Positions 7,216 through 64,000 of a stretch of 64,000 nt of DNA are shown here, piece after piece. The stretch lies in contig JBBRWO010000003.1 of the NCBI GenBank assembly GCA_038249135.1, positions 1,860 to 65,859 of the forward strand, given 5' to 3'. The DNA is from Coriobacteriia bacterium. GTDB lineage: Bacteria; Actinomycetota; Coriobacteriia; Anaerosomatales; JAAXUF01. How positions within the stretch are numbered: position 1 is the stretch's first letter; the number at the start of each line of letters is the position of its first letter. The notes under the pieces are model-generated. The model ran no database searches, was not told where the DNA came from, and saw only the letters and a program-made list of their open reading frames with translations. The position numbers and the translations under genes were made by a program.

Positions 7216-7258
7216 GAACTACCACCCTTCAGCAACCAGTACGAACATGGCACTCAAC

Positions 7259-7276: not shown

Positions 7277-7301
7277 TATTCGCGAGTGCTTCCAGCTGCT
7301 G

Positions 7302-7523: not shown

Positions 7524-7851
7524 CAGGTGCATCTCCCTCGGATTTGATGTTCCCGCAGTACGGGCACATGCGCCAATCCTGCATCATCGCGGCGTCGCAG
7601 GAACCACACCGTACCATCACGGGCGCCGAGCGGTCTTCATGATTACGGTGAGATGACAACAGCGCCCAGCTCAACAGCACTACCAGGCCGGTCGCGATGG
7701 CGGGTATAACCCAGCCCAGACCAGCGCCTTGTGGGAGTGCGTAACGGTCAGCGTCGGCGAAAAGGGTAAGCCCCAAGGCCAGCAAGACACCCGTCACAAC
7801 GAGACCCGAGAGAAGGCCTGCTAGTGCGCGTGTCGCCGGACGAGATGTCAC
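7516..7851 (-). CDS. small membrane protein with C-terminal zinc-ribbon (CxxC...CxxC)
   Basis: Two hydrophobic helices are followed by VRCGSCDAAMMQDWRMCPYCG. Start moved to GTG 7851 (AGGGAG RBS 7 nt upstream). The 28 codons upstream in the track ORF are Arg/Pro-rich and contain a sigma-54 promoter match. Confidence 0.6.
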   Translation of the reverse strand: MTSRPATRALAGLLSGLVVTGVLLALGLTLFADADRYALPQGAGLGWVIPAIATGLVVLLSWALLSSHRNHEDRSAPVMVRCGSCDAAMMQDWRMCPYCGNIKSEGDAPDE

Positions 7852-7893
7852 TCGGAAGCTCCCTGGCAGAGGGCATGGACGTAACCGCCGAGG

Positions 7894-7909
7894 TGCAATC
7901 GGTGTGCCA
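7894..7909 (-). promoter_or_regulatory. sigma-54 (-24/-12) promoter
   Basis: The minus strand reads TGGCACACCGATTGCA, an exact match to TGGCAC-N5-TTGCA. It sits in the 94-nt gap between the EBP gene stop (7946) and GTG 7851, in the correct orientation. Confidence 0.65.
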
Positions 7910-7945
7910 ACATCCGCAGAGCGCGCCAGACGCATCTCCGAGAGG

Positions 7946-9295
7946 TCAGAGTCCTAGCCGCTGCATGCGCGCTTCAAGCGTCTTGGCGGTGAGCCCCAGA
8001 AGCTTCGCTGCCTTGGGAACAACGCTCCCCGCGCGGTCAAGCGCCTGCCTCACCAAGTCAAGCTCGACCTCCTCGAGGTCGACCCCGTCTTCCGGTAGCG
8101 TGAATCCGCTGGTCGCACGGTCGAACCCACCCAGTCCGGCACGCACCTCGCCCGGAAGATCGGAAAGCTCTATCTCATCGCCGTGCGACAGAATGATGAT
8201 GCGCTCGATGGTGTTCTCAAGCTCTCGAATGTTCCCTGGCCACTGATAGCGAGCAAGCGCCTCCATGGCCGCGGGCGAAATCCGCTTGGCGCCTGCCTTG
8301 AACTTCTCGAGGAAGTGGGCGACGAGAAGCGGAATGTCCCCGCTGCGGTGACGCAACGGCGGCAGCGTCACCGGAACCACGTTGAGGCGATAGAAGAGAT
8401 CCTCTCGGAAGGCTCCGTCAGCGATCAGTTGCTGGAGGTCCTGGTTCGTGGCGGCGACCACCCGAACGTCGACATCGATACTGCGGGTTCCGCCGAGACG
8501 CTCGAAACTGCGCTCCTGCAAGACTCGAAGCAGCTTGACCTGCGTCGCCGACGAGATGTCGCCGATCTCATCGAGGAACAACGTGCCCCCGTTCGCGAGT
8601 TCGAACCGCCCGGGCTTCGCTGTGACCGCTCCGGTGAACGCGCCCTTCTCGAACCCGAAGAGCTCGCTCTCCAGCAGAGTCTCAGGCAGCGCACCCGCGC
8701 TCACGGACACAAACGGCTTGTTGGCCCGATCAGAAAGGTTGTGGAGAGCGCGCGCGATGAGCTCCTTGCCCGTACCTGACTCGCCGTAGATCATGACCGT
8801 GGCCAGCGTCGGTGCCACCTTCTGCACCGTCTCGAGCACCGCCATCATGCCGGCGTCTGATGCCACGATTCCTTCGACGTCGTACTCACGGTCCAACTCG
8901 CTTCTCAGGCGAACCACCTCAGCGGCGAGTCCCGAGTACGTGAGCGCCTTATCGATGGCGAGCTTGAGCTCTTCGAGGTCGAATGGCTTGGTCAGGTACT
9001 CGCTCGCGCCGGCCTTCATCGCCTCGACGGCCGTCGCCACATTGCCGTGCGCAGTCAGCATGATGATCGGGAACTGAAGGCCTTTACTCCGAACGGTACG
9101 AAGCACCTCCATGCCGTCTTTGCCCGGCATCCGGTGGTCGAGCACCATGACATCGGGCTCCTGGTCCGAGATGATCGAGAGCGCCTCAACGCCGTCGGAC
9201 GCCTCGAGGACCTCGTAGCCATCGCCCGAGAGCGCCTGGCCGAGAACCCATCTCATGTTCTTCTCGTCATCAACAATGAGCACGCGCTTGCCCAT
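7946..9295 (-). CDS. sigma-54-dependent response regulator (NtrC/AtoC family: REC + AAA+ + Fis-type HTH)
   Basis: The receiver domain is VLIVDDE...[13 protein letters not shown]. Walker A is GESGTGKE, the sigma-54 contact loop is [15 protein letters not shown], and the C-terminal HTH is [16 protein letters not shown]. Confidence 0.92.
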
Positions 9296-9306
9296 GTGGG
9301 TCCCCT

Positions 9307-10842
9307 TTACTCGTCCAGTGCCGCCGGCAAGGTCACGTTGAATACCGTGCCATCCGGAGAACTCTCTACTTCGATTCTACCTTCGTGCTCGTCAATGATC
9401 CTGTGAACTATCGTCAGGCCAAGTCCGGTGCCTTCGGCCCGCTTGGTGGAGAACGGGTCGAACACCTTAGGTAGATCCTCCGGCGCGATTCCCGGGCCAC
9501 TGTCGGCTACCGACACTTGTACGTACTCACCGCTCGCGCGAGTGGCGATGATAATGGTTCCGCCGTCGTCACCCATCGCTTGCACGGCGTTGGTGACCAG
9601 ATTCAGAAACACTTGCTTGAGCTGATCGGGGTCGCCATCAACGAGCGGGAGGTCGTCGGCGAGCCGTTGCTCGATTCGGACGTCGGACTGACGCGCGAAC
9701 CGAGTAGTGAAGAGTACTACGTCCTGCAAAAGCTCGTTGAGGTCAGCACGGACCAGCGTGGGTTTGCTGGGTCGGCCGAAGTCCAACAACGCCTTGATGA
9801 CCTTGTCCAGTCGATCGATCTCTTGCTTGATGACCTCTGCCGCGTCGTGAATGCGCGCCGCGTCGCATTGCGCATCCTCGAGCAGTTGTACGCTGGCTCT
9901 GATGACCCCAAGCGGGTTGCGGACCTCGTGCGCAACGCCGGCGGTCAACTCGCCCATGGCAGCAAGACGGTCCGCCCGAATGAGCTGATCGGTCAACGCC
10001 TTTATGTCTGAGACGTCTTCGAGTGTCACGACAGCCCCAAGCACTGTGCCACCGACGGCACGCATCCGCGACGTCGAAGATTGCACGTGAACCTCACGTC
10101 CTGAAGACGTGGTCAGCGTTCCCTCGCGTAGCGCCAGAGGTAGCCGACCCGCCAAGACCTTGTCGACATCGCCGGAAATTCCACCGTCTTCGCGAAACAG
10201 GAGCGAGATCGGCCGAGGGACCATCTCGAACTCGGACATGCCGAGCATCCGCTCCGCAGCAGGGTTGGCCGTGGTCACAGAACCATCCGGGCCCACCGTA
10301 AGCACCCCCGAGGTAATCGATCTGAGAATCGACTGGGTGTAATCCTGGATGTTGATGAGCTGGATCGCCCGCTCTTCGAGCTTCTTGTACGCCTCCTCGA
10401 GCTGCAAAGAGAGCTGACGCAAGTCGCGCGTCTTGTTCTCCTCTGTGTCGCGAAGCGCACCGAACAGCACGCCCACCGCGATAAACGATGCAACCTCCAG
10501 GACGCTGGCAAAGCCGGTGCTCATCGGAAGACCCAGGGTGGTTCGAGAATGGATCGCAAACGGCAGCGAGGCGGCAAGCGCGACGGCGAAGCCACCCCGA
10601 CGACCGAAAACGTACGCCGCGTAGATGATAGGAACGTAGTAGAGCCGCTGGTACAGGAGGTGCATCTGCGCACTTCCAACCCCTGACCCGGCCAGAAGGT
10701 GCAGTGCCGAGACTCCGATCAGCATCACGACGATGATCAGCGTCGCACGAACCTCGCGCGCCCTCTGCGCGTCGGCCATGGCGGGTGCGCCTTCGGTCGC
10801 GAGCTGCGGTCGCTTCGGCAGCCCGGCGCGCTCCCCTGTCAT
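9307..10842 (-). CDS. membrane sensor histidine kinase (multi-TM N-terminus, PAS, HisKA, HATPase_c)
   Basis: H-box [17 protein letters not shown]-box [12 protein letters not shown]-box DSGPGI...GTGLGL. ATG 10842 overlaps the rpoN stop as ATGA. Confidence 0.88.
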
Positions 10843-12239
10843 CTGCGGCGCCTCGCCCAAGACGGCTCGATGTGCAGTTCCTCGCGATACTTCGCTACCG
10901 TACGCCGCGCCACGGTAACGCCCTCGTCGGACAGCATCTCAGCGAGTCGCTGATCCGAGAGCGGCTTGGCGACATCTTCCGCCAGCACGAGTTCGCGCAA
11001 CCGCTGCTTGATACTGGTGGCGGCCACGTCCATGCCACTCGTCGTCCGGTATCCGCCGCTGAAGAAGTGCTTGAGCTCGAAGAGGCCATAGGGCGTGGCC
11101 ATGTATTTGCCGGTTACCCCGCGGGAGACGGTCGACAGGTGTACGCCGATCTCCACGGCGACGTCCTCGAGTCGCAGCGGACGCAACAGCCCGTGCCCGT
11201 CCTCGAAGAACTCGAACTGCACCTCGAGGATGATCTGCGTGATCCGCGTGACCGTGTCCTTGCGCCGATCGACGTTCTTGATGAAACTCTCCGCCGAGCG
11301 GATCTTGTCCTTCAGGTACTTGCGTGTCTCGTCATCTGCCGAGGAACCGCTGCGCAGCATCGACCGATACCGCGGGGACACGCGCAACGTGGGAATCGCT
11401 TCGTTGTTCGAGGTGATGACCCACTCATCGTCGAAGCGACGAATCGTCACGTCCGGCACGATGTAGCCCGGCGAAGGTCCGGGAGAAAACGCTCCGGCCG
11501 GTCTGGGGTTGAGGACTTTGAGAATCTCAACCAGTCGCCGGACCTCGGCCTCATCGACCTTCAGCGCTCGCGCGACCTTGCGATAGTGGTTGGCGGCAAC
11601 ATCATCGAGATGCTCGCGCACGATGACGAGCAGCAACGGCTCCTCGATGTCGAGTGACTCGAGCTGAAGACGCAACGCTTCTGCGAGGTCGCGCGCGCCA
11701 ACCCCCGGCGGATCGAGTTGCTGAACCGCGCGAAGTCCCTCCTCGGCCTCGGCGAGGGTAACGTCAACGAGTTTCGCGACTTCCTCGAGCGAGCCGACAA
11801 AAAATCCGTCCTTGTCGAGCGACCCGACCACGGCCTTCGCCGCATTCTCGACATCCTCGGTGACGTCAAGCAAGGAAAGCTGCTCGAGCAGATAGTCGTC
11901 GAACGACTGAACGCCGCCGACAAAGTCCTCAGTGTTGGTCTGCTCGGCGTTAGGGTCGCGGGGCGCACTCTGGTCGGTGGTGTCGAGATCCTCATACATC
12001 TCGAGCCACTCGTCCCACGAACGCTCGTCGACCGGCTCCTCAGGAGCCTCTTCACCCTCAGCGGGCTCACTGTCGGTCTCGTCAACCTCGAGGACCGGGT
12101 TCTCGAGCATCTCGACTTCGATCATCTGCTGAAGCTCTGTAACGGGCATGGCGAGTATGGCCAGTCCCTGATACACCTGCGGGGACAGCGTCACTTTCTG
12201 GCGAAGGTCTGATCGCTGCGAGAGTTCCAAAGTACTCAC
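10839..12239 (-). CDS. rpoN: RNA polymerase sigma-54 factor
   Basis: 466 aa with a Gln/Leu-rich region I, an acidic region II and the C-terminal RpoN box ARRTVAKYREEL. Confidence 0.93.
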   Translation of the reverse strand: MSTLELSQRSDLRQKVTLSPQVYQGLAILAMPVTELQQMIEVEMLENPVLEVDETDSEPAEGEEAPEEPVDERSWDEWLEMYEDLDTTDQSAPRDPNAEQTNTEDFVGGVQSFDDYLLEQLSLLDVTEDVENAAKAVVGSLDKDGFFVGSLEEVAKLVDVTLAEAEEGLRAVQQLDPPGVGARDLAEALRLQLESLDIEEPLLLVIVREHLDDVAANHYRKVARALKVDEAEVRRLVEILKVLNPRPAGAFSPGPSPGYIVPDVTIRRFDDEWVITSNNEAIPTLRVSPRYRSMLRSGSSADDETRKYLKDKIRSAESFIKNVDRRKDTVTRITQIILEVQFEFFEDGHGLLRPLRLEDVAVEIGVHLSTVSRGVTGKYMATPYGLFELKHFFSGGYRTTSGMDVAATSIKQRLRELVLAEDVAKPLSDQRLAEMLSDEGVTVARRTVAKYREELHIEPSWARRRR

Positions 12240-12342: not shown

Positions 12343-13365
12343 TCACTCCTGTGGCGGCAGGATGGGCACCGGCTGCCGCTCGGGCAGCTGGACCACCGCG
12401 ATCGCTGCGATGACGAGTGCTCCGCCCAGGATCTGTACCGGGCTCAGCGCCGTGCCGAACAGGAAGTACGCGCCGATAGCCGCCAGCACCGGCTCAACGG
12501 TCGACGTCACCGTCGCGTTGGTGGGCGCGATGTGGCGCAACGCGGTCAGGAAGGCCGCGAAGGGAACAATCGTGCTCACCACGGCGATGAACAGAACAGC
12601 AACGGCCGTCTTCACATCCAGAAGGAGCGAGAGAACCGGCTTCACACCAAGCACCGCGAACCAGAACACACTCGCGAACGCGAGCCCCCAGACCAGTGTC
12701 GTATACGGCGGATAACGGCGAGCCGCGACCGAACCCATCAGGGAGTATGCCGCGAAGAACACCGCCGAAAGCAGTCCCCAGAGCACTCCCGTGGGCGGGA
12801 TGGAGAGACCGTCGCCGCCTATGGCGCCGACCACCAACGCACACCCGAGAACCGACAGCGCGACGCCGACAGGTAGTGCCCATGTCAGCTTGTGTCGCAG
12901 GAAGAGCACACTGAACGCGAGCACCAGTACCGGGGCGAGATATTCAAGCAGAATCGCGGTCGCGGGATCGTGTGTGATCGAGATGGTCTTGAAGTACGTG
13001 TAGTGGACCATGGCCAATCCGGCAACTCCGAACACCGCGAAGAACGGCACTTCGCGCAGTTCTATTCGCAAGTCGCGACGGCGAAAGACAGCCAAGTACG
13101 CCGCCAGCAGTACAAACGCGCTGAATGCGCGGGCGCCGGACAGCACGGTCGGCTCGACCACCATGCCGAGCGGGGCGACCAGCCACGCATTCGTGGCAAG
13201 CGACGGCGTAGTGAACAGCCAATCAGCTGTCAAACCTCCGGTCGCCCAGCAGGCAGCCGCCAGCAAAGCCAACAGATACCCCCGGAGCGCCGACTGTTTG
13301 AGAGGGCCCGCCTTACGCGCCTGAGCCACGGGACTCCTCGGCGGTCTTGGCCTTCTGATAGTCAT
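12343..13365 (-). CDS. EamA/DMT-family transporter
   Basis: About 10 hydrophobic helices in two repeated halves, typical of EamA. The start is uncertain because the longest ORF overlaps the 3' end of the CDF gene. Confidence 0.8.
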   Translation of the reverse strand: MTIRRPRPPRSPVAQARKAGPLKQSALRGYLLALLAAACWATGGLTADWLFTTPSLATNAWLVAPLGMVVEPTVLSGARAFSAFVLLAAYLAVFRRRDLRIELREVPFFAVFGVAGLAMVHYTYFKTISITHDPATAILLEYLAPVLVLAFSVLFLRHKLTWALPVGVALSVLGCALVVGAIGGDGLSIPPTGVLWGLLSAVFFAAYSLMGSVAARRYPPYTTLVWGLAFASVFWFAVLGVKPVLSLLLDVKTAVAVLFIAVVSTIVPFAAFLTALRHIAPTNATVTSTVEPVLAAIGAYFLFGTALSPVQILGGALVIAAIAVVQLPERQPVPILPPQE

Positions 13366-14257
13366 CGTAAGGCTCGAGGTGGGCGATCACGTCGACGATC
13401 TGCTGATACTGCTCGGCAAGGGTGAGCTCCACCTCTTCTGCGATGTCGTGCCCCTCCGCGACGGTGGCCTCGGGGTCGACCTGCACGTGTAGATCCACAT
13501 ACACCTCGGCCTCAGAACCACGCGTTCGGATGTGATGGCAGCCCAAGACACCGGGAACCGAGATCGCGACCGCGCAGATATCGTCGGCTGGTATGCGCAT
13601 GGAGTCCGAGAGGGTCGCACTGGCATGACGGAACACTCCCCATGCGGTGTACACGATCGCGCACGTCACCAGCAAAGCGACAATCGGGTCGGCCAGGGGG
13701 AAGCCAAGCTTCACCAACACGAGGCTGACGATGACTCCGATGCTGACGAGTGCGTCAGATCCGGTGTGGCTTGCGTCGGCGACCAGGATCGAACTGCCCA
13801 GTCTGTGACCGACCCGGCGTTCCCAGAACGTGACGCCTAGATTGACAGCAAGCGTGCCGAGCATGACCACAAAGGACATGGCGGTGACCGTCGGGGGCTC
13901 ACCGCCACTCCTGAGTCCGGCAATGGCCTCGCTGCCGATTCGATACGCAGCAAACAGGAGCATCGCACCGATGACCGCGGATGCGTAGGTCTCGTACTTG
14001 CCATGCCCGTACGGGTGGTCCTCGTCGGCAGGACGACCGGCAAAGCCCATACCGACGAGGCCAACGACATTGCTCGCTCCGTCGAACAGGGAGTGAAAAC
14101 CGTCAGCCTGCATTGCGGTAGAGCCGCTGATCGTTCCCCACACGAGCTTAGCCAATGCGACAGCGACGTTCAGGAACAGAATTATCCAGAGAATCCGCTT
14201 GATCTCGCGGATTCTGCCCTCACCAGCCGCTGCGTTTGCTGGTCGTGTGTAGCCCAC
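13313..14257 (-). CDS. cation diffusion facilitator (CDF) divalent-metal efflux transporter
   Basis: HxxxD motifs are present in TM2 (FHSLFD) and TM5 (SHTGSD), with a C-terminal cytoplasmic domain. Start moved to GTG 14257 (GGAGGGGGA RBS) because the longer ORF would read through the operator palindrome. Confidence 0.85.
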   Translation of the reverse strand: MGYTRPANAAAGEGRIREIKRILWIILFLNVAVALAKLVWGTISGSTAMQADGFHSLFDGASNVVGLVGMGFAGRPADEDHPYGHGKYETYASAVIGAMLLFAAYRIGSEAIAGLRSGGEPPTVTAMSFVVMLGTLAVNLGVTFWERRVGHRLGSSILVADASHTGSDALVSIGVIVSLVLVKLGFPLADPIVALLVTCAIVYTAWGVFRHASATLSDSMRIPADDICAVAISVPGVLGCHHIRTRGSEAEVYVDLHVQVDPEATVAEGHDIAEEVELTLAEQYQQIVDVIAHLEPYDDYQKAKTAEESRGSGA

Positions 14258-14289
14258 GCTTCCCCCTCCGTGATACTGGCTTGCTGTGA

Positions 14290-14306
14290 ATACCCCTAGG
14301 GGGTAT
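14290..14306. promoter_or_regulatory. CsoR-family operator palindrome in the divergent CDF/csoR intergenic region
   Basis: ATACCCCTAGGGGGTAT has 7-bp arms ATACCCC/GGGGTAT. It lies 33 nt from the CDF start and 51 nt from the csoR-like start. A weaker second site, GTACCCGAGGGGAC, is at 14333-14346. Confidence 0.55.
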
Positions 14307-14356
14307 AGTGTCTGCGTAAGAGAGAGCATACCGTACCCGAGGGGACTGGGCTAACC

Positions 14357-14653
14357 ATGACCGAGATCAATGCGTTGATCGCCGATGAGGCCGAGCGGAC
14401 AAAGATCATCAACAGGCTTCGCCGACTCGAAGGTCAGATCCGTGGGCTGCAAACGATGATCGAATCGGGCAAAGAATGCGACGCCGTACTCACGCAGGTG
14501 ATGGCTGCGAAGTCGGCACTGAACCAAGTGGGACTGCACATCATCGGCCACTCAATGAAGCGTTGTCTGATCGACGATAGCGCAGAGACCCGTGATGAGG
14601 TCATCGACCAGGCGATAGCTACCTTCCTCAAGTACTCGAACTGCGTCAAGTAG
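14357..14653 (+). CDS. CsoR/RcnR-family metal-sensing transcriptional repressor
   Basis: 98 aa. INRLRRLEGQIRGLQTMIE...ECDAVLTQVMAAKSAL...HIIGHSMKRC is the DUF156 helical-bundle pattern with its Cys/His ligands. Confidence 0.88.
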   Translation: MTEINALIADEAERTKIINRLRRLEGQIRGLQTMIESGKECDAVLTQVMAAKSALNQVGLHIIGHSMKRCLIDDSAETRDEVIDQAIATFLKYSNCVK

Positions 14654-34492: not shown

Positions 34493-37400
34493 TCAGCGCC
34501 AGTGCTCGAATCCATCCCTGAGTCGCCGTTGTGTCTGGGAGAGCATCTGTCGCTGCCGCTCCCACGTCAGCGCGATGACGAGCATCGCAGTGCCGACCAG
34601 GCCGAGAACCAGCCACCACACGCTTGCGAGGTACGTGAACGAGCGCCAGCCGACCACGACCACAAGTGCGCCGGCCGCCCCGAACAGGTAGGCACGCACC
34701 TTGAGAATCACTCCCGCTGCGATTGCAACGAGCGCGAGGCCAACCGCCCACACGAGGTCGCTGAATCCCGCAGCGCCCATCGGAGCGGTAAGCGCGATCA
34801 ACGCCGGCATCCCCACGCCCACTGCAACGGTCGCGATATCGAGCGCAACGGGAACGGTGCGCTCGAAGGCCCTGGATGCGTACAGATAGCCCATGGCAGC
34901 GAGGTAGGCTGCCACAGCCGTCGTGTAGACCTGGAACGTGGTGACATCCCAAGCGGAGAACTCCACGCACGCAGCCACTAGAAGCAGCGCCCATCCCACG
35001 TACGACACGGCCTCGACTTTCCAGAGGTGCGACTGTGTGATGACGTAAGCAGCCGCGATCGTGAAGCACAGGGCGACACCTTGGCGACCAAACTCCGTCC
35101 ATGAGGGCGGCTCGAACATCAGACCGGTCGCCGCCTCTCCGGCGATACTCAATGCAACGAGAAATCCGACGCCGACAAGCCCGGCCAGTGCCACTGCCTG
35201 GCCGACGCGTGCAAGGCGACCGTCACGCCCCGTGACACCGAGCGCCGACGGGAGTCCGAGGCCCCCTGCGGCGACACCGAGAACGATGATCGTGACCCAC
35301 GACGAAGGGCCGATTGCCGAGACACCCGCGACCACAGCGGCGAACCCGACGAGTGCCGCTGCGAACGACAGCCACTGCTCGCGGGTCGAGAATGCTGCGC
35401 CGACCCACGCCAGCGAGGCCAGAGCCAGCGAACCACAGAGCGGCCAATCGGTCGCCCCCATTGCCGCAGCGGTCGTAGCCGCCCCTGCCGCCGCGACCGC
35501 GAACCACTGAGCCTTGGGCGTCCAGCGGTCACGCAGGGCCACACCGACCAACGCGAGCACCGCGCCGGCAGCCGTTGCCGCCAACCCTGCATCCCCCGGA
35601 AGTTCTCGGAAAGCGAAGCCGGCGAGCCCGGCAGCAAGCACACCACCGGCCGCAGCGATCGCCGCAGAGGCCTGCGGGCCTGCCAGCACGGCATCAACCG
35701 TGAAAACCGCCGAGAAGCCGAGCGCGAGTGCCGCCATCGAGCCCGACGACGGGTTGGCCCTGAATGACTCGGCGACCACGCCACCAACCAGTAGTGCGAT
35801 CGCGATGCCACGCATCGTCCAGCCGAACGCCTCAGCAGGAGCTCGGTAGAACCGCTCGACCCGGGCACGTACGGCGAGCCAGGCGGCCGTCACGCCCAGC
35901 AGCACGAGCGCGTACATCGGCGAGGAGAGGTCCGGCAGCAGCCATGCGCAAAGCGCCGCCGCCGCGTACAGCGACCAGAGCGCGGACCCAAACGCTGCGA
36001 AGGGACCGCGGCGAATCAGACAGCTCAGCGCCCAAGCGACCAGTACCCAAGCCGCGAGCATGACGTCTGCCGAAGGGACGGCGATGGCCGTGAGCGGGAC
36101 ACCTGCCCCCACAAGCGGCACGAGAATCGAGGAAAGCACCAGCCCTGCATTCCCGCCGACTCGCAGCACGCCAGAGGTCTCTATCACGCTCGCCGAGGAC
36201 GCCGAATGGTCAACGAACCCGTCGGCCAACCCGTTTGTGAGTCTGTCGGCGAGAACCGAAGCCAGCGTCCACGTGACTGCGAGCCCAGCCAGCACGGCGA
36301 CCCCGACGGGATCGGTCGCGTGGAGCAGTTCGAGCGCGCTGGTTGCAGCAAGCAGCTCCATGCCGAGCGCCGCAATCGCGAAGGGGGTACCCGCGCGGCG
36401 TAGGGCGATCAGCGTATACATCGCGGTCACCAGGACGAGACAGCCGACCCCGAGCCACGACGGCATGCCGGGCTGAAGAAGCATCACAAACAGCGGCAGC
36501 TGGATAGCACCTGCGATCCAGCGAGCGTTGTCACGCTGCAACAGCGTGCTGCGAAGCACGACCCCCGCGCCGGCCAGCGTGACAGTGGCGGCGCTCGCGG
36601 CGCTGACGAGCGAACTCGTCCCGACGGCGAGGGCGTCTGCCGCGATACCCATCGCAGCGCCAACACTCACCACCGGAGCCGCCCACAGAAGCACCTGCGC
36701 GAGCGAGGCGAACGAGTCGTCGTCGTGAGCCCGCTCGGCGACGAGTTGCCACAGCAGCGCAATCACGGCTATTCCCGCGAGCCGCACCGGATTCTCAAGA
36801 TGCAGACCCGCTGCCATCAACCACCACCAGCCCACTTGAGCCGCTGCACCGGCAATGCCATAGAAGCGGTCGCCGAGCCGCACCTCGGTGAGCCAGTACA
36901 CCGCCGAGCACACCAGCAGCGCCACAGCCCACGGGAACGGTCCTTCGAGCCGCCAACCGTCAATGACTATCCAACAGTCGAACAACAGCATCGCCGAAGC
37001 GACCACCGTGAGCGCCACGCTACCCGCCCGGAGGTCGAGTTTGGTGCGAGCGTAATGCCCCGCCGCGTAGAACACCGCCGTCAGCGCGCCGAGAAACGCA
37101 AGGCGCAAACCCGGCCCGGTGGAGCTCCACACCGCGAACGCGAAGATGCCGGACGCCACGATGACCAGAAACGCTCCGAGGAACAGCAGAACCGTCGTCC
37201 AGCTGATCGGTTCGCGAACTCGGGCCGGCATCTGTGAGACTGTCTGCGTCACCGCAGGACCTGGCACCGCGCCACGAGAAGCGTAGTCGCCCGCGGGTGA
37301 CGCCGTGCCGGGAATCCGCGGACTCGTCTCGGCAACCGCTGGTGGCCGGTAGGCTCCCGTGATGATGACGATGAGGTCTTCTCGGCGGGCGAGGTAGCGC

Positions 37401-37585
37401 GGCGCGAGCGCCTCGTAAGACGCCATCGGGACCTCGCCTCGCTCGACCGCGCGTGCGATCTGATCAAGAAAGTAGTCGATGCGTCCGAGTTCGTTCTGCT
37501 CTGCGAGATGCGGCCGCACGTCCCCCACGGGAACCCCCTCGTTCGACAGTGGAATGCGAGTACAGGATACCCTGCCGCGGCTCAC
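34493..37585 (-). CDS. large polytopic membrane protein of unknown function (about 1030 aa, more than 20 hydrophobic segments)
   Basis: A soluble N-terminal region of about 130 aa is followed by near-continuous Ala/Leu/Gly/Val-rich TM-like segments to the C-terminus. I recognise no catalytic motif. GTG 37585 overlaps the uvrC stop (GTGA). Confidence 0.7.
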   Translation of the reverse strand: MSRGRVSCTRIPLSNEGVPVGDVRPHLAEQNELGRIDYFLDQIARAVERGEVPMASYEALAPRYLARREDLIVIITGAYRPPAVAETSPRIPGTASPAGDYASRGAVPGPAVTQTVSQMPARVREPISWTTVLLFLGAFLVIVASGIFAFAVWSSTGPGLRLAFLGALTAVFYAAGHYARTKLDLRAGSVALTVVASAMLLFDCWIVIDGWRLEGPFPWAVALLVCSAVYWLTEVRLGDRFYGIAGAAAQVGWWWLMAAGLHLENPVRLAGIAVIALLWQLVAERAHDDDSFASLAQVLLWAAPVVSVGAAMGIAADALAVGTSSLVSAASAATVTLAGAGVVLRSTLLQRDNARWIAGAIQLPLFVMLLQPGMPSWLGVGCLVLVTAMYTLIALRRAGTPFAIAALGMELLAATSALELLHATDPVGVAVLAGLAVTWTLASVLADRLTNGLADGFVDHSASSASVIETSGVLRVGGNAGLVLSSILVPLVGAGVPLTAIAVPSADVMLAAWVLVAWALSCLIRRGPFAAFGSALWSLYAAAALCAWLLPDLSSPMYALVLLGVTAAWLAVRARVERFYRAPAEAFGWTMRGIAIALLVGGVVAESFRANPSSGSMAALALGFSAVFTVDAVLAGPQASAAIAAAGGVLAAGLAGFAFRELPGDAGLAATAAGAVLALVGVALRDRWTPKAQWFAVAAAGAATTAAAMGATDWPLCGSLALASLAWVGAAFSTREQWLSFAAALVGFAAVVAGVSAIGPSSWVTIIVLGVAAGGLGLPSALGVTGRDGRLARVGQAVALAGLVGVGFLVALSIAGEAATGLMFEPPSWTEFGRQGVALCFTIAAAYVITQSHLWKVEAVSYVGWALLLVAACVEFSAWDVTTFQVYTTAVAAYLAAMGYLYASRAFERTVPVALDIATVAVGVGMPALIALTAPMGAAGFSDLVWAVGLALVAIAAGVILKVRAYLFGAAGALVVVVGWRSFTYLASVWWLVLGLVGTAMLVIALTWERQRQMLSQTQRRLRDGFEHWR

Positions 37586-49712: not shown

Positions 49713-50072
49713 CTACTTCCCGCCGTCAGCGATCGGGTCGGTCCTTGCGAGCAGCGCGTCGAGCGATGCCTGCATCGACTCGAGTCGTCCGCGCATCTCG
49801 GCGACCTCGAATGTGAGACCGTCCAGGTGTTGCGAGACGTCGGTGCGCGAACCCGCCGGCTCGGCACCTCCCGATGCCAGCTCGGCCTTGAGCTGCTCCT
49901 TACGCTCAGCAATCATCGCCGAGAGCCCGTCCACGAACGCCTCGGGTCCGGCGTCCATGCCCCCGGTCTCCTGGCCTTCTCCCCGTGTCACAGCCGCCTT
50001 CCAGCCCTCGTCCGCCGTTTCATGCACCAGCGCCCACGAGGCCATGAATCGCATAAAGTCGTCGTTGTTCAC
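49713..50072 (-). CDS. hypothetical coiled-coil protein
   Basis: 119 aa. The ATG directly abuts the ATPase stop. The C-terminal half has a heptad-like pattern (LDGLTFEVAEMRGRLESMQASLDALL). No family recognised. Confidence 0.45.
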   Translation of the reverse strand: MNNDDFMRFMASWALVHETADEGWKAAVTRGEGQETGGMDAGPEAFVDGLSAMIAERKEQLKAELASGGAEPAGSRTDVSQHLDGLTFEVAEMRGRLESMQASLDALLARTDPIADGGK

Positions 50073-52310
50073 CTACGCCCTCCTCTTCTCTTGTGCGGTA
50101 TTCGCCGAACGTCGCCCACTTCCCGCCGATGACTTCGCTAGGAGGCGCATCCCGTTCGCGATCACCAACAATGCCACGCCTGTGTCGGCGAAGACTGCGA
50201 GCCACATGTTGGCGTACCCGAACACGGCCGCCGTCAGCACCGCCACCTTCACCGCCACCGAGAACACGACGTTCTGGCGGATGATTGCAAGCGTGCGGCG
50301 ACCCAACGCGAAGAAGCCCGGCAGAGCCGTGAGATCGTCGGCCATCAGCGCAACGTCGGCCGTCTCCAATGCCGTGTCGGAACCGACCGCGCCCATCGCG
50401 ATGCCGATGTCGGCCGCAGCAAGCGCGGGCGCGTCGTTCACGCCGTCCCCGACCATCGCCACGACTCCCCAGCGCTCCTTGAGCCGATGCACGGCCGCGA
50501 CCTTGTCGGCGGGCAGGAGCCTCGCCATGTGCGAGGCCAGCCCGAGCCGGTGCGCGACCGCGGCGGCAGTCCGTTCGTTGTCGCCGGTCAGCATCACCAG
50601 GTGCTCGATACCACCCTGCTGGAGCGCCGCAATCGCATCGGGTGCCTCCGCGCGTGCCGCATCAGCCACGCCGAGGAACCCGAGCGGTGCGTGACAGTCC
50701 TCGGCCAGAACAAGAATCGTCATCCCGGCGTTCTCGGCCTCTTCGACGAGGGTCGCGAGCTCCGGTGGGATGCGCACAAGCTCCTCGGCGAAGACCGGGC
50801 TGACAAGGTGGAGTCGGCGGCCATCGACGGTGCCGCTGACTCCGCGGCCCGGCTGCTCCACGACATCGGTTGCAGGCCTCATCGAGAGCTGGACCCGCTG
50901 CGCCTCGACGAGCACCGCGCGAGCGAGCGGATGGGTGGAGTTGGCTTCAAGCGACGCGGCAAGCGCTAAGACCTCATCAGCGTCGAGCATGTCCTCGGCG
51001 TGGACTCGGCGCACGAACGGACGACCGGCCGTCAGGGTCCCGGTCTTGTCGAACGCGATCGCTCGTACACGCGCAGCCTGCTCAAGGAACGCGCCGCCCT
51101 TTACCAGGACGCCATCGCGCGCGGCCCTCGAAATCGCGCTCACAAGCGTGACCGGAGTCGAGATGACGAGTGCGCATGGACATGCCGCGACGAGCACAAC
51201 CAGCGAGCGATAGAACCACTCGGACCAGACGGTCAGATCGTTGACCGGCGTGAAGTGAACCGCTGCAGAGATCAACGGGCCGCCAACCGCTACGACCACT
51301 GCGAGCCCGACCGCGAGGGGCGTGTAGACGCGACTGAAGCGATCCACTACGAGTTGAACCGGGGCGCGGGCCGCCTGAGCCTCTTCGACCTGGAAGACGA
51401 TGCGAGCGAGTGTAGAGTCTTCCGCGCTCGCGGTGACCGTGATCTCGAGCAACCCACTGGTGTTGAGGGAGCCCGCGTACACCGCGTCACCCACCGCCTT
51501 ATCGGCGGGCATCGGCTCGCCTGTGATCGGCGCCTCGTCGACCGCAGAGAACCCGACAGCGATCGTGCCGTCCAATGCGATCCGCTCGCCGGGCCTGACG
51601 ATGATAACCTCGCCGACCGAGACCGCCGCCGGGGAAACTTCGACTATCGTCGAGTCACGGCGCACTCGCGCAATCGGGGGCGCCAACGACATCAGGTCGC
51701 GAATCGAGCTGCGCGTGCGAGCCAGCGCGCGCGACTCAAGCCATCCTCCCAGCGCAAAGAGGAAGACAACGGTCGCGGCCTCAGAGTACGCCCCGATACC
51801 AAACGCGCCGATGACCGCAATCATCATGAGCACGTTCATATCCACGCTACGAGCTCGCACAGAAGCGACCGCACGCGGCCCGAGCAGGCTGAAGCCCATG
51901 AGCACCGCGAGCAGGTAAGTCGCGGTCGACGCAGCCGGCGAAACTCCAGCGAGTGCCCAGCCAGCAAGTGACAGCGCGCCGGACCCGACAACCGCTATCG
52001 TCGTGCGATTGCGCGCCATCCACGGCCGGGAATCAGGCGTGCCCGAGGGCTCGCGCGCCTCGCCGACCGCCACGATCCCGTGACCCGAGCGCTCGACCAC
52101 CGCGACGACGCGCGCGCGCGGATCGTCCTCGGGTTCGTATTCGATCAACAGGGTGCCACTCGCGTAGTTCAGGTCCGCCGAGACCACCCCGGGGACCAGC
52201 GATACGGACTTAGCCACGGTCCGCGCGCAGTCGGGTCAATCAAGCCCCGTGATATGCCACACCTCGTGCGGGTAGGCGCCCGAGATGTCTACCCCACTCA
52301 CGCGCGTCAT
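50073..52310 (-). CDS. P1B-type heavy-metal (Zn/Cd/Pb-like) translocating ATPase; N-terminal HMA domain interrupted by in-frame TGA at codon 25
   Basis: CPC in TM6 (VAACPCALVIS), DKTGTLT, STHPLA, GDGVNDAP and a ZntA-like TM7-8 (VKVAV...AVFADTG). The track ORF starts at GTG 52217. The same frame continues upstream through TGA (52236-52238) to ATG 52310, which overlaps the arsR stop. Confidence 0.9.
52236..52238 (-). other. in-frame TGA at the first Cys position of the HMA GLD-C-PDC motif (Sec candidate or nonsense mutation)
   Basis: The frame reads ...EVWHITGLD-TGA-PDCARTVAKSVSLVPGVV.... Cys would be expected here in a GxDCxxC metal-binding loop. Confidence 0.6.
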
Positions 52311-52711
52311 CTGTCGACCCTTTGGTGAGGAAGGTGCTCGGCTGCGTGCGCGAGACCTTGGTCGAGCAGCGCTGTCACGTGGTCATCCGCAAGCCGGTAG
52401 ACCGCACGGTTCCCGTCTCGGCGAAACACCACCAAACCGCGGTCCCGTAACAGCCTCAATTGGTGACTGACCCCCGACTGGCTGATGCCGCATACCTCGG
52501 CGAGGTCGCAGACGCAGAGCTCTGTTACCGAGAGCGCGTCGAGGATACGCAGCCGCGTCGGGTCCGACAACGCCGAGAAGATCGCGGTGGTCGCTCGAAC
52601 CAGCGGTTCATCGGCCAATCGTACACGCGCGACAGCAACCGCCGTACAATCGATGATCGTTGCAGCGCACGCGCCCTCGGTGATAGAACCGGTACCCGCG
52701 TCCCTGCTCAC
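52307..52711 (-). CDS. ArsR/SmtB-family metal-responsive repressor (CadC/CzrA-like)
   Basis: The winged HTH is LSDPTRLRILDAL...ELCVCDLAEVCGISQSGVSHQLRLLR, with an alpha3 CVC site. The C-terminal DDHVTALLDQGLAHAAEH is alpha5-like (DxH-x10-H). N-terminal Cys residues are also present. Confidence 0.9.
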   Translation of the reverse strand: MSRDAGTGSITEGACAATIIDCTAVAVARVRLADEPLVRATTAIFSALSDPTRLRILDALSVTELCVCDLAEVCGISQSGVSHQLRLLRDRGLVVFRRDGNRAVYRLADDHVTALLDQGLAHAAEHLPHQRVDR

Positions 52712-52725: not shown

Positions 52726-52747
52726 TGAACGAATGCTCATATGTTCA
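52726..52747. promoter_or_regulatory. candidate ArsR/SmtB operator
   Basis: TGAACGAATGCTCATATGTTCA is a TGAAC-N12-GTTCA inverted repeat with a CATATG core, 15 nt upstream of the arsR GTG. Confidence 0.35.
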
Positions 52748-52826: not shown

Positions 52827-53198
52827 CTAGCGCATGCCGTACTCATCAATCAACGGGTCGTATGCCTGAACGTTCCAGTCGATTTGCAGGGAGCGAAGGC
52901 GGTTGTAGTACTCCTCTTCGTTGTATTCCTTGTTGAGAATGTGGAACCGAGCGCCATTGAGCCCTACGCAGTAGGCGCAGTCACGGCAATCCACGCACTG
53001 GACACACTCGATCAAGCTGTCGCAGTTGTGACAGCCGATGCAGGCACGCGCGTTGTAGGTGTAGTTGCAGTTGCGGGTCGCCTCCACGTTGAAGCAGCCG
53101 TAGTTATTCATCGCATCGCGGTCATGGGTATGCTCAACTTTGAGCCGAGACCACTCGCGTGCGTGTGCAGCCTTGTCCAACATCGCAGCCCTTCCCAT
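52827..53198 (-). CDS. small cysteine-rich protein (12 Cys within about 50 residues), unknown function
   Basis: ...NYGCFNVEATRNCNYTYNARACIGCHNCDSLIECVQCVDCRDCAYCVG... has CxxC spaced every 3-6 residues. It is followed by an acidic/aromatic tail (NKEYNEEEYYNRL). The local DNA is visibly more AT-rich than its surroundings. Confidence 0.55.
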   Translation of the reverse strand: MGRAAMLDKAAHAREWSRLKVEHTHDRDAMNNYGCFNVEATRNCNYTYNARACIGCHNCDSLIECVQCVDCRDCAYCVGLNGARFHILNKEYNEEEYYNRLRSLQIDWNVQAYDPLIDEYGMR

Positions 53199-59843: not shown

Positions 59844-62800
59844 CTAGTGACAACTCGCACATGCTGGCGCGACGCCACCCAGCGGCTTCTCGTAGACATC
59901 GAAGCGATCGACGGTCACGTTCGTCGCGCGAGCGTACTGGCTCTTCGTCCCTTTCACCTTCACCGTGAGCGTGTGCGTTCCCGGAGCGAGCGCTCTGCTC
60001 CTGTACACCTCGACCTGGTTGCGGGTGATGTCGGAATACAGGTCAACGGTTCCTTGCGAGACGCCGTCGATGAGGACCTCGGCGAAACCACGGTAGGGGT
60101 CGTTGTCGGCGCGGATGGCGATCTGCTCTCCGGTGAACTGGACGGAGAGTGTCGAACCGGTGACATTGGACTGCTTCTGCTGTCCGGCGGTGTAGGACTG
60201 CGATGTCTGCACCCTCCACGTTCCGGTGGTGGTGACGGTGTTGGCCAGGTAGCGGTTGGCCGGGGACGCGGCATGGCTGCGTTCCTCGAGGAAGCGGGCC
60301 GATGTGTCGGCGACCTGGCTGGTCGAGTGGCACAGCGGACCGCCGCAGGTCACCGACTCGCTTGCAACGTGGCTGTCAGCAGTCTGGTCACCGTCGTCCA
60401 CACCTCGTGACGTGGGACCGACCCACGGTGTGGCCGAGGTCATCGTCGACGCATGCCCGGAGTGCGTGGCCGACACCGAACCCTCGTGACACGCCACGCA
60501 TGCGGCAACGGCGTGGCATGAGCCACACTTCGAGACCGAGGTGTCGACTCCGGCAGGCCAGGTAGCCTTGGAGTGGATGACGTGGAGCGCAGCGACACTG
60601 GTCTCTTGCGAGGCCGAGAACGCGAAGACGCCGAACGTGTCGATGTAGCGCGGCACCCCGGACGTAGAGGACGCTCCCCAGCCGGGATGGCAGGAGGCGC
60701 CGCAGTTTGCGTCGCGGTTGTGATAGGGATGAGTGCCTGCGAGCGACTCGTCGTGGCACTTTCGGCACGCGGTAGCGTAGTTCACCGGAGCGACCGAGAA
60801 CCCGTGGGGATCAGCGGCCGACGCTCCCCCATGGCACGCGCCGGTCTGGCAGTTCTTGTCCCACACGGTGAACGAACCGCGAGGACCACCATCGGCGTGA
60901 CAGGCCTGGCATCCGGCTGCGGCCGACGAGCTGGTCGACTTGGCGTGCTCAACGACCAACTCGGCCGAGTGGCACTTCGCACACGCGGTGCGGTCGTCCG
61001 AGGCTATGAACTGGGATGCAGGATGCGCGTGCCCCTCGTGGCAATCGAAACATGTGGTCTGATCATCGGTCTCGATCTCGTCGAGCTTCATGCTTGCAGT
61101 GAAGATGTTCTCCGGGAGCGATGGTGGCTCGAGGACGAATCGTACCGCCTCGGCAGGGGGATTGAAGGTGAGGACTGTGTCCACCTTTGAAATGTCGGTC
61201 GGAGGGTAATACAGCGGCGCCGAGTACCGAGACGTCCATACCCCGTTCGAGAGCGCCTCGACCTTGACGACGGAACGCACCTTCACGGTAAGCCGCAGCC
61301 TGGCGGAGGTGATGCGGCCGGAGTCGGGCGCGAAGCTGGTGCTCTCCCATCGCTTGTTCGTGAAAGCGACTTCTGTGGAGCGCAGGTTGGCGCGGTAGAC
61401 CTGTGCTTTCATCGAATCAGGATCCGACGCCGAGTGACATGTGGCGCAGGTGAGCGCGTTGCCTCCCGCGTCGCGAGCCGACTGCTTCGCGTGCTCGCGG
61501 GTCAGAACCGCGTCGTGACATGCATCGCATCCTTGCCCGCCGAACGCGACCCGATGATCGGCGGGGATGTCATGCGGACCGACACGCGGACTCAGCGGAT
61601 TCACCACTTGGTGGCAGTACGTGCAGTCAAGTGCCTCACGGGGCGCATTGACCGCGTACTTCGAAGCGTCGGAACGATCCTTGTAGGAATACGAGAAGGT
61701 CCCGCCGTGATCCCCATCAACGGGGCGGATGTAGGCAGGTGCCGGCCACGAGGCCATGGTGTTTCCAGCAGATCCATAGCGGTGACATGCGTCGCAGTGC
61801 CCCAACCCGGACACGGTGAGTCCCCCTTGCTCGTGGCAAAGGAAGCAGCGGTTGTCCTGGTGGTAGTTGTCCCCGAACGTGGTGTTGTGGACGTCGTCGA
61901 ATCCACCTGAGCCGGGAAGATCCTTGTAGGAGGTGGAGTTGTACACCTCACGGTCGGTGTAAGTTGGTCCGCGATGACAGCCTTTGCAGGCATCGTTGGC
62001 ATCGTCCACATAGGGCATGTCGACGAAGCCGGTCACGTCGAAGTCCCATGACGCGACCTTGGTCAACTGCTTACTGCTCCGAATCGAAACGTCGACATGG
62101 TGCGAACCCGACGTCAAGCGCTGTTTAAAGCGAATCTCGGCATGTGTATCGGAGAGACTCATCGCAACCGAGGGCGTGACGGGCTTGCCGTCCACGGTCA
62201 TGACAACGGTCGTAGGCCCCAAGCCGTCGGGCTCGTCGAAGTCGACCGCGATGAGCGGCGTGTCAGTGGTCAGCACGCTTCCCGCCGCCGGCGTGATGTT
62301 GCTCGCCTGTGGCTCGACACCCACGTAGAAGTTCCAGTCGTTGGTCTTGTCGGTGTACGCGCTGTACGACGACTCGAACCCGTGGACGTCCTCTGCCATG
62401 ACCCTCACGTTGTGGGTTGTCCGGGGAGTGAACGCCGTGCCCTCATGAGTCACGAGATACCCACCGTCGATGGAAGTCGCGACGTGAGGGACTAAGACGT
62501 TGTCCACATAGAACCGAATCGTGTCCGAGCTCACTCCCGAGCTATCCGTCACCCTCGCCGAGATAACGGGAGTCGTCGATCCTGTTGATCCCCCGTACGC
62601 GGGCTGCTTGGACCCGACCGCAGGACGATCCTTCACGTATGAGATCGACCACGTGACTTCCGCACGCGTCCCGAGTGTGTCAAGAACCGACAACTCGACC
62701 GAGATCGGTCCGCCCTCGGGGAACGCCGGGCCCAGCGCGTACGTGAGAATCCCGTGACTGTGCTCCCATTCGGTTCCGGCCCATTCATCGGACCAAGAGA

Positions 62801-64000
62801 GTTGCGGCACCGCCGTCACGATTTGCCCCGACGGCAAGGTGAGCTTCAGGCTCTGTGAGCCCTCGGCAATCCCGTCGGCGTCGAATACTCTCGCCTGGAT
62901 ACTCCCATAATCCGTGAGTGCCCCGTCCGAGGGTGCGAGCGAGCTGAATGCGGGTGCAGCTGGCAGGTCGACGTGAAAGCTCCACGTCGCCTCCGCCGGT
63001 GCGCCCACGTTGTCCGTACATGACACGCGCACCTCGTGCGGGCCGTCCACGAGCTCAGCGAGCGGCTTGGCCGCAATCGAATACCCCTGAGCGACGGGCG
63101 TGAGCGTAACGGGAAGATCGATGCCGTCCACCCGCATCGTCACCGAATCCGCGTCTATTCCTGCCGAAGAGTCGACGAAGGTGACCGATATCGTAGGCTG
63201 CACGGATGACTGGTGGACTCCCTGCGCGGGAGAAGGGTGGCTCCACACCGGAAATCCGGCGATGGCCATGAACCGGCGGGTGTAGGTCCGCGACACCCCT
63301 AGGCTGTCGGCGACGGTGATCGCAGAGTCGAATACCTGGCCATCCGCGGGATTGGCGACAGCGGTACTGATGGTGAGCGCGGTGTCCGCGGCCGAGTACG
63401 CCGTCCAGGGCGTAACGGTACGCGTGGTCGTGTTCACTGAGTCGCTCATGCGAACAATGAGTGAAGATCGGTCGATCGCATCATCATCGGCTAGGCCGAT
63501 ATACCGACTCACGGAAGGCTGGATCCAGCTGACGGGTTCTCCCATGTCGTCGTAGGTCCAGTAGCCCCCGCTCATCACCGCGAATCCGGAAGATGCGCTG
63601 TCAGATGTGATACGCGGAGCATTGTTGGTCTCCGCACGCGAAAAGATCCACGACCGCGTCACGAGATGCCCCGCCCGGTCGGCGGCAGTGACAGTCACGC
63701 CATGGTTCCCTATGGCGAGAGGGAGCGATGGCACGTAGGTGAGCCGGTAGCCCGATGCGACCGTTACGACGGAGGGAGTCACAAGTTGCCCGTCGACCGT
63801 CATCAGGATGGATTCAGGGGCGATGCCGCTTCCGGTATCAATGAGGTCGGCGAAGATCGGCCTCTGCGGATCCCACACCTCGGTTCGTGGGCCCCATGCA
63901 GACACCTGCGGAAACGTCTCATCGACGGTGAAACCCCACGATGCGTTCGCCGTATTGCCTACACCGTCCCGAGCTCCGAGGGTGACGGTGTAGTCGCCGT
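59844..64000 (-). CDS. giant extracytoplasmic multiheme c-type cytochrome with N-terminal Ig-like (Big_5-like) repeats; 5' end beyond the right edge of the window
   Basis: The frame stays open from 63905 to 64000 (GDYTVTLGARDGVGNTANASWGFTVDETFPQ...). At least six modules of about 100 aa end in W-x-F (ASWGFTV, RSWIFS, ATWSFHV, VTWSISY, NDWNFYV, ASWDFDV). The C-terminal 714 aa carry 13 CXXCH plus CX4CH, CX3CH and CX4CH variants, and the protein ends in ...PACASCH-stop. Confidence 0.85.
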   Translation of the reverse strand, partial: GDYTVTLGARDGVGNTANASWGFTVDETFPQVSAWGPRTEVWDPQRPIFADLIDTGSGIAPESILMTVDGQLVTPSVVTVASGYRLTYVPSLPLAIGNHGVTVTAADRAGHLVTRSWIFSRAETNNAPRITSDSASSGFAVMSGGYWTYDDMGEPVSWIQPSVSRYIGLADDDAIDRSSLIVRMSDSVNTTTRTVTPWTAYSAADTALTISTAVANPADGQVFDSAITVADSLGVSRTYTRRFMAIAGFPVWSHPSPAQGVHQSSVQPTISVTFVDSSAGIDADSVTMRVDGIDLPVTLTPVAQGYSIAAKPLAELVDGPHEVRVSCTDNVGAPAEATWSFHVDLPAAPAFSSLAPSDGALTDYGSIQARVFDADGIAEGSQSLKLTLPSGQIVTAVPQLSWSDEWAGTEWEHSHGILTYALGPAFPEGGPISVELSVLDTLGTRAEVTWSISYVKDRPAVGSKQPAYGGSTGSTTPVISARVTDSSGVSSDTIRFYVDNVLVPHVATSIDGGYLVTHEGTAFTPRTTHNVRVMAEDVHGFESSYSAYTDKTNDWNFYVGVEPQASNITPAAGSVLTTDTPLIAVDFDEPDGLGPTTVVMTVDGKPVTPSVAMSLSDTHAEIRFKQRLTSGSHHVDVSIRSSKQLTKVASWDFDVTGFVDMPYVDDANDACKGCHRGPTYTDREVYNSTSYKDLPGSGGFDDVHNTTFGDNYHQDNRCFLCHEQGGLTVSGLGHCDACHRYGSAGNTMASWPAPAYIRPVDGDHGGTFSYSYKDRSDASKYAVNAPREALDCTYCHQVVNPLSPRVGPHDIPADHRVAFGGQGCDACHDAVLTREHAKQSARDAGGNALTCATCHSASDPDSMKAQVYRANLRSTEVAFTNKRWESTSFAPDSGRITSARLRLTVKVRSVVKVEALSNGVWTSRYSAPLYYPPTDISKVDTVLTFNPPAEAVRFVLEPPSLPENIFTASMKLDEIETDDQTTCFDCHEGHAHPASQFIASDDRTACAKCHSAELVVEHAKSTSSSAAAGCQACHADGGPRGSFTVWDKNCQTGACHGGASAADPHGFSVAPVNYATACRKCHDESLAGTHPYHNRDANCGASCHPGWGASSTSGVPRYIDTFGVFAFSASQETSVAALHVIHSKATWPAGVDTSVSKCGSCHAVAACVACHEGSVSATHSGHASTMTSATPWVGPTSRGVDDGDQTADSHVASESVTCGGPLCHSTSQVADTSARFLEERSHAASPANRYLANTVTTTGTWRVQTSQSYTAGQQKQSNVTGSTLSVQFTGEQIAIRADNDPYRGFAEVLIDGVSQGTVDLYSDITRNQVEVYRSRALAPGTHTLTVKVKGTKSQYARATNVTVDRFDVYEKPLGGVAPACASCH

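Follow-up and report, generated by a model that had tools for sequence, protein, structure and literature searches.

A stretch of 64,000 nucleotides (nt) from a Coriobacteriia bacterium (assembly GCA_038249135.1, contig JBBRWO010000003.1; hereafter the window, meaning the whole stretch) carries on its minus strand a heavy-metal P1B-2 ATPase gene of the CadA/ZntA-like type (50073..52310; 745 codons plus stop), which is interrupted at codon 25 by an in-frame TGA (52236..52238). We consider it very probable that this UGA is a conserved selenocysteine (Sec) codon, served by a hairpin of its own, in a 745-residue pump whose translation starts at ATG 52310. The codon occupies the first position of a U-P-D-C metal motif (52238..52227) in the N-terminal HMA domain, and the same column in relatives is filled by TGA or by a Cys codon. 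Selection acts on the codons that flank it on both sides, and a hairpin with the geometry of a bacterial Sec insertion sequence (SECIS) follows it in the window as well as in its TGA-type relatives. All genes and motifs given below lie on the minus strand unless marked otherwise.

Reading frame and start of the ATPase gene

The automatic open reading frame (ORF) call for the ATPase (50073..52217, 714 amino acids) begins at a GTG (52215..52217) and is truncated at its N-terminus, leaving an 89-nt gap to the upstream arsR-family gene. Within this gap the same frame reads M-TRVSGVDISGAYPHEVWHITGLD-TGA(52238..52236)-PDC-ARTV from ATG 52310 and runs directly into the called protein. The 24 codons that precede the TGA encode MTRVSGVDISGAYPHEVWHITGLD and those that follow it begin with PDCARTVAKSV; past the TGA the frame reads PDCARTVAKSVSLVPGVVSADLNYASG and goes on with no further stop until 50073, such that the peptide across the predicted Sec residue would read VSGVDISGAYPHEVWHITGLD-U-PDCAR. 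The GTG called as a start is actually Val32 and is situated within the apical loop of the hairpin. Of the window's 47 complete genes, 19 terminate at TGA, and the codon is thus not reassigned genome-wide.

The ATPase ATG (52310..52308) overlaps the TGA stop of arsR (52309..52307) in an ATGA junction of the translational-coupling type (52307..52310), and the sequence AAGGG is present 7 nt upstream of this ATG, whereas no Shine-Dalgarno-like sequence precedes GTG 52217. An ATGA or GTGA overlap between the ATPase start and the arsR stop recurs in at least 12 related loci, TGA-type and Cys-type alike, in which 14, 24 or ~90 codons separate the overlapping start from the U/C column downstream of it. 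Relatives share no restart codon, and their called N-termini begin with MAKSV, VAKSV, MLPGV, MVPGV, MGASV or MLCADV. The frame from ATG 52310 to the TGA, the 89-nt gap and further ATGA junctions at 10839, 19289 and 21340 had all been pointed out in an initial annotation of the window and are present in the sequence; its proposal that translation starts at ATG 52310 gains support from the overlap with the arsR stop in relatives and from the purifying selection on the upstream codons described below.

Conservation of the TGA codon and of its flanks

Relatives were identified by searching the protein database with the 745-residue protein in which Cys was substituted at codon 25, and the corresponding DNA was obtained by exact-protein look-up and by one scan each of genome contigs and metagenome contigs. 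The scans used the peptide probes [PAE]GVVSADLN and [FY]ASG[TV]L[LM][VI]E[YF] and returned 11 loci per collection; as both probes lie downstream of the TGA and the hairpin, no bias on the TGA result is possible. Exact-protein look-up with two ORFs of the window itself returned no record, probably on account of differing start codons.

At column 25, TGA is present in 21 distinct related sequences from independent assemblies, TGT or TGC in 7, and TAA or TAG in none; the alignment of orthologues that the initial annotation had called for thus shows TGA or Cys only. The ATPases of the 21 TGA-type sequences are ~50-90% identical to the window protein. Assemblies with the TGA form include GCA_964388455.1 (contig CAYMAN010000020.1), one with the 1.37-Mb contig CAVXGS010000002.1, GCA_030652355.1 and GCA_964644675.1. 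Codon 25 stands opposite the first Cys of GLDCPDC in 47 database homologues and likewise in 7 related loci. The nearest database relatives (87% to ~58% identity) are almost all ~680-730 amino acids long, lack PF00403 and begin just past the CxxC, which is the pattern expected where gene prediction breaks off at a Sec codon, whereas remoter relatives are longer and contain GLDCPDC. Among the best 120 database homologues, 47 begin just past the CxxC, with 8 being TGA-type by their DNA and 39 assigned from the short N-terminus. One further short call (P0054) resembled a truncated Sec-type protein and was set aside, as its DNA reveals a Cys-type gene with a miscalled start; a short N-terminus alone is therefore no proof of Sec.

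The 24 codons from the ATG to the TGA differ between the window and the related locus L001 (87% identical) by 9 synonymous and 1 non-synonymous changes, and between the window and L023 by 5 synonymous and 1 non-synonymous changes. The motif W-[RH]-[VI]-T-G-L-D that leads up to the TGA is conserved across the TGA-type sequences while its third codon positions vary: the Gly at -3 is invariant yet encoded by four codons (GGG, GGC, GGA and GGT), and the Leu at -2 is invariant with three (CTT, CTC and CTG). On the other side, the P-D-C-A-R-T between the TGA and the called starts is invariant or nearly so, the second Cys included. Many relatives possess an extra domain of ~70 residues with a CxxC, upstream and in the same frame. 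Judged by these substitution patterns, the segment upstream of the TGA is translated and under purifying selection.

Several further features of the TGA-type sequences were observed. In 19 of 19 sequences the UGA is preceded by GAT, though GAC is the commoner Asp codon elsewhere in them, and it is followed by C in every case; this fixed context may reflect a requirement for recoding. In some relatives, L008 (P0112) and P0118, one polypeptide contains two HMA domains in tandem, of which the leading one has Sec (GLD-U-PDC) and the other Cys (GLDCADC), which provides an internal Sec/Cys comparison. In one TGA-type metagenome contig of low coverage (L030, 1201..1260), two nearby and compensating single-base indels just after the TGA lead to PDWRTHRGASV in place of PDCARTVGASV and are probably assembly errors.

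A SECIS-type hairpin follows the UGA

Instead of plain fold stability, the region 3′ of the UGA was assessed by a test of consensus geometry against synonymous recodings and Cys-codon controls. The published bacterial consensus comprises a loop of 3-9 nt, a stem of 4-16 bp, a UGA-to-loop distance of 16-37 nt and a minimum free energy of at most -7.5 kcal/mol, with a G in the first two loop positions that is usually followed by G or U (PMC13188914). The window hairpin (52199..52228) has a lower stem GCG/CGC and a 6-bp upper stem in which 52224..52219 pairs with 52209..52204 (GCGGAC/GUCCGU), capped by a 9-nt apical loop (52218..52210; CGUGGCUAA in CGGAC-CGUGGCUAA-GUCCG). The loop begins 17 nt past the UGA and exposes G-U at its positions 2-3 (G22 and U23, counted from the U of the UGA), and the predicted energy is -7.7 kcal/mol for the upper stem and -11.4 kcal/mol with the lower stem.

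The window hairpin passes the consensus test, as do 19 of the 19 TGA-type sequences examined, with a spacing of 17-18 nt. By comparison, only 3-36% of trials meet the consensus when the same peptides are recoded synonymously with the codon usage of the clade. Among Cys-codon controls from the same loci and the window, 3 of 25 distinct TGY-encoded CxxC sites pass, and none of the nine homologous GLDCPDC sites does so. Moreover, four versions of the stem are found: CGGAC/GUCCG with an apical loop of 9 nt (the class of the window), CGCAC/GUGCG with the loop CGUGA (GUG in L013), GCGCGCC/GGCGCGU with the loop GUU, and GCGGUC/GGCCGC with the loop GGUC. In one case an A-U pair is exchanged for G-C by a compensatory double change, and two residues of the protein change with it (Thr to Ala and Ser to Gly). 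The CGGAC/GUCCG hairpin had been noticed previously, and it is present, although it starts 12 nt after the UGA (11 nt with the G-U closing pair) and not 13 nt; graded earlier as a weak SECIS candidate, the hairpin meets the published consensus and is kept through changes of stem sequence in relatives.

Protein subtype and predicted consequences of Sec insertion

With Cys at codon 25, the N-terminal HMA domain (residues 20-77; 52080..52253) extends across the UGA and matches PF00403 with 37.3 bits (cut-off 24.8; E = 3.7e-9). Alignment to solved HMA domains places codon 25 on the first Cys of GMTCxxC (CopA 1p6t, ATP7B and ZntA 1mwy), which together with the Pfam match bears out the earlier assignment of the TGA to the first Cys of the HMA CxxC. 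Pfam further identifies the E1-E2_ATPase and Hydrolase domains in addition to HMA, and the protein exceeds the cut-off of TIGR01525 (heavy-metal P-type ATPase; 575.8 versus 346.25 bits). A TGE motif is found at residues 263-265, the CPC motif of transmembrane helix 6 at residues 377-379 (51174..51182), where it forms the transmembrane metal site, and the DKTGT phosphorylation motif at residues 421-425 (51036..51050). The sequences N-x7-K (NVVFSVAVK, residues 680-688) and D-x-G (ADTG, residues 708-711), both within 50178..50273, are signatures of the Zn/Cd/Pb (P1B-2) subgroup, in agreement with a score above the cut-off for the Cd-type family TIGR01512 (490 versus 313.5 bits) and below it for the Cu-type family TIGR01511 (366 versus 397 bits). 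By its motifs the window protein is a CadA/ZntA-like P1B-2 ATPase, and these motifs along with the ArsR/SmtB-type repressor encoded upstream suggest a specificity for Zn, Cd or Pb.

In the mechanism that we propose, ATG 52310 would serve as the start, with initiation coupled to the stop codon of the repressor gene that precedes it. At UGA-25 the hairpin 52228..52199, with G22 and U23 in its apical loop, would recruit SelB-GTP-Sec-tRNA(Sec), and Sec would be inserted in a SelB-dependent manner instead of termination. The metal site would then become GLD-U-PDC in place of GLD-C-PDC, and the selenolate and the Cys28 thiolate, probably with Asp24, may bind a soft divalent metal in the regulatory N-terminal domain and so modulate the pump.

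Alternative explanations of the UGA

Certain observations weigh against Sec insertion at this codon or limit the evidence in its favour. No selA, selB, selD or tRNA-Sec was found within the 64-kb window (ARAGORN; Pfam and NCBIfam, 48 genes), the only tRNA there being a tRNA-Leu. The hairpin is thermodynamically modest, with the energy of its upper stem lying at the -7.5 kcal/mol threshold, and the local fold is no more stable than dinucleotide shuffles (z = 0.11), stability being uninformative at 63% GC. The Fisher p-values for TGA-type versus Cys-codon sites (2e-9 against the 25 CxxC sites and 1e-7 against the 9 homologous GLDCPDC sites) overstate the significance because the sequences are phylogenetically linked. 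Likewise, G22-U23 is present in the apical loop of all four stem versions, but as a conserved Val codon begins with these two bases, their invariance is partly forced and is not independent evidence. No Rfam SECIS family matched, either in the window at the gathering score or in 52120..52320 with E values of up to 10 allowed. Given how short and diverse such elements are in bacteria, this counts against membership of those Rfam families and not against a SECIS function.

The alternative that fares best is a conserved UGA that works without selenium, either through near-cognate read-through with Trp or Cys, or as a programmed stop that yields a 24-residue peptide followed by hairpin-promoted re-initiation, possibly with a regulatory role. 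The lack of Sec machinery in the window and the marginal energy of the hairpin would favour such a scheme, as would the C that follows the UGA, which is a leaky termination context. We nonetheless regard it as improbable. The column alternates with Cys codons only and never with those for Trp or other residues, and the SelB-type geometry is maintained in all 19 sequences examined despite the changes in stem sequence. Every residue from the UGA to any restart codon, Cys28 among them, is invariant or nearly so. Were the HMA fold split after strand 1, it could bind no metal. In addition, ATPases with this UxxC pattern are listed as a family of selenoproteins in Sec-using organisms.

A recent nonsense mutation, with a pump that lacks the Cys pair being made from GTG 52217 and the 24 upstream codons decaying, is highly improbable. 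ORF callers do begin at this GTG, and a truncated pump would be viable, as ZntA-type pumps remain active without the N-terminal domain. However, the TGA is common to 21 distinct sequences spanning the above range of protein identity, the GTG is neither conserved as a restart codon nor preceded by a ribosome-binding sequence of the kind found at ATG 52310, and the upstream codons contain neither frameshifts nor extra stops. The initial annotation had regarded relatives with the TGA but degraded upstream codons as evidence for pseudogenisation of the N-terminus, and the upstream codons are instead conserved, with synonymous to non-synonymous ratios of 9:1 and 5:1. A sequencing or assembly error has a negligible probability: although TGA is one base away from TGC or TGT, the same TGA is found in NCBI, ENA and JGI assemblies from other samples, as well as in a Logan assembly of run SRR19962012 that is 99.95% identical to the window across 9.7 kb, though possibly of the same sample.

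The comparative data thus reject the alternative kept by the initial annotation, in which re-initiation at GTG 52217 follows a fresh nonsense mutation or an error of sequencing, and support its Sec reading through a column restricted to TGA and Cys, conserved upstream codons and a hairpin that fits the consensus.

Distribution and significance

Sec and Cys forms are found about equally often in the neighbourhood that was sampled. In a rough neighbour-joining tree of the 120 homologues the two types are interspersed, with at least ~11 state changes, most of the Sec states in it being assigned from short calls, and this pattern fits the known dynamic exchange of Sec and Cys. We see an even chance that Sec is a common, perhaps the prevailing, first HMA ligand of Zn/Cd/Pb pumps in an uncultured Coriobacteriia-like lineage, having exchanged with Cys some ten or more times, and that the SECIS was re-formed within one and the same helix-coding segment, giving at least four stem versions. 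If so, nature has in effect run a replicated experiment in this lineage, one that bears on what favours a selenolate at a non-redox metal site and on how a SECIS co-evolves with the peptide that it encodes.

Because gene prediction halts at the Sec codon, the window gene and ~40% of the 120 homologues nearest to it (47 entries, 39 of them judged from the short N-terminus only) have annotations that are ~30-110 residues short and lack the metal-binding domain. Corrected annotation restores the HMA domain and would mark these organisms as Sec users. Most selenoproteins use Sec for redox catalysis; here it is a predicted metal ligand in the regulatory domain of a Zn/Cd/Pb-type pump, and the close Cys-type relatives allow a direct comparison by which any functional gain of selenium over sulfur might be assessed. 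With respect to method, the case shows that comparison with synonymous recodings and with Cys-type homologues can reveal a SECIS even where the stability of the hairpin is unremarkable.

The operon and other genes of the window

The first gene of the operon (52307..52711) encodes an ArsR/SmtB-family metalloregulator of 134 residues with an ELCVCDL motif and N-terminal Cys residues (Pfam HTH_5; NCBIfam NF033788, 101 bits versus a cut-off of 55), and a homologue is located upstream of the ATPase in related loci. An imperfect 22-bp palindrome, TGAACATATGAGCATTCGTTCA (52726..52747, no strand assigned), is positioned 15 nt upstream of the arsR start and is probably the operator of the repressor; a near-identical copy precedes arsR in L019. 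The locus is syntenic in relatives, in the order uvrB, small ORFs, arsR, ATPase, 119-residue ORF, ABC1 kinase gene and larE, and the relatives that carry names are metagenome-assembled genomes (MAGs) of Coriobacteriia, Coriobacteriales or Actinomycetota. Directly past the ATPase stop, the 119-residue ORF (49713..50072) has no Pfam or NCBIfam match and may be the third gene of the operon; most relatives examined (not L004-L006) have an ORF of 113-143 residues in the same place, followed by the ABC1/UbiB kinase gene. Between uvrB and arsR, 52827..53198 encodes a very Cys-rich protein of 123 residues (CIGCHNCDSLIECVQCVDCRDCAYCVGLNG) without a family match, the position of which beside a metal-resistance operon is suggestive.

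Two other loci in the window relate to metals. A small metal-handling cluster (6496..7946) contains a DsbD-type transmembrane protein gene (6496..7215) and a gene for a 76-residue HMA protein (7302..7532) with an ordinary Cys site, GLHCTSC, upstream of which a small membrane protein with a zinc-ribbon-like motif (CxxC…CxxC) is encoded; the cluster adjoins genes for sigma-54, an activator and a PAS histidine kinase (7946..12239, no strand assigned). A third metal-resistance locus (13313..14653) consists of a cation-diffusion-facilitator efflux gene (13313..14329) and a divergent CsoR/RcnR-type repressor gene on the plus strand (14357..14653). Two very large ORFs were also noted, one of 1030 residues with no Pfam match (34493..37585), and one of more than 1384 residues that runs past the window end (59844..63998) and has weak Big_13, CE2_N and cytochrome c7-like matches. 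No convincing second selenoprotein candidate emerged when every gene of the window was scanned, at either end, for an in-frame TGA accompanied by a SECIS-like hairpin.

Comparison with known systems

A selenoprotein family named 'Cation-transporting ATPase, E1-E2' with a UxxC motif has been catalogued repeatedly (PMC1976440, 2007; PMC2398784, 2008; PMC5029168, 2016; PMC9312934, 2022; PMC13188914, 2026) and numbered 32 sequences in 25 organisms in 2016 (PMC5029168), while a 2006 survey in Genome Biology does not mention it. The window gene resembles this family in being a heavy-metal P1B ATPase above the TIGR01525 cut-off (COG2217) with U25-P-D-C28, in having a predicted Sec in place of the first Cys of the CxxC with abundant Cys homologues, and in carrying the SECIS hairpin inside the coding region. 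Unlike the catalogued entries, the window gene belongs to MAGs of uncultured Coriobacteriia-like actinobacteria and bears no selenoprotein annotation, and the database entries for its clade are without exception calls truncated at the N-terminus; a literature search on Coriobacteriia together with selenocysteine gave nothing useful. The likeness to the published example ABB15669.1 is one of motif type, for which both a common origin and an independent Cys-to-Sec switch are possible. As the family is already catalogued, the novelty of the window gene is modest, namely that of a new, unannotated member.

Compared with the Cys-type pumps ZntA and CadA (E. coli ZntA 1mwy, Shigella ZntA 4umv), the window protein shares the order of HMA domain, transmembrane helices with CPC, and DKTGT, as well as the N-x7-K and D-x-G sequences, and its gene follows an ArsR/SmtB repressor gene as in cadCA operons. 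The Asp that precedes the first ligand is also in common, GLD-U-PDC paralleling GMDCAAC of ZntA, whereas the first thiolate ligand is replaced by a predicted selenolate. A score of 520 bits against a cut-off of 1240 for the ZntA equivalog NF033775 makes the window protein a relative and not an orthologue of ZntA.

The hairpin is similar to the SECIS of E. coli fdhF in that it lies directly 3′ of the UGA within the ORF and exposes G-U in the apical loop, at +22/+23 in the window versus G23/U24 in fdhF, and the relative L033 has the loop GGUC, as in fdhF. Unlike in fdhF, the stem is shorter (6 bp + 3 bp), the loop in the window class is 9 nt long, and no bulged U was identified. Finally, other predicted metal-handling selenoproteins, namely the putative mercuric transport MerT-like protein, MerP, YHS-domain proteins and SaoB/SaoC, likewise place Sec at a metal-ligand rather than a redox-catalytic position and are linked to heavy-metal resistance (PMC13188914), although they have other folds and no P-type ATPase core, in contrast to the pump described here.

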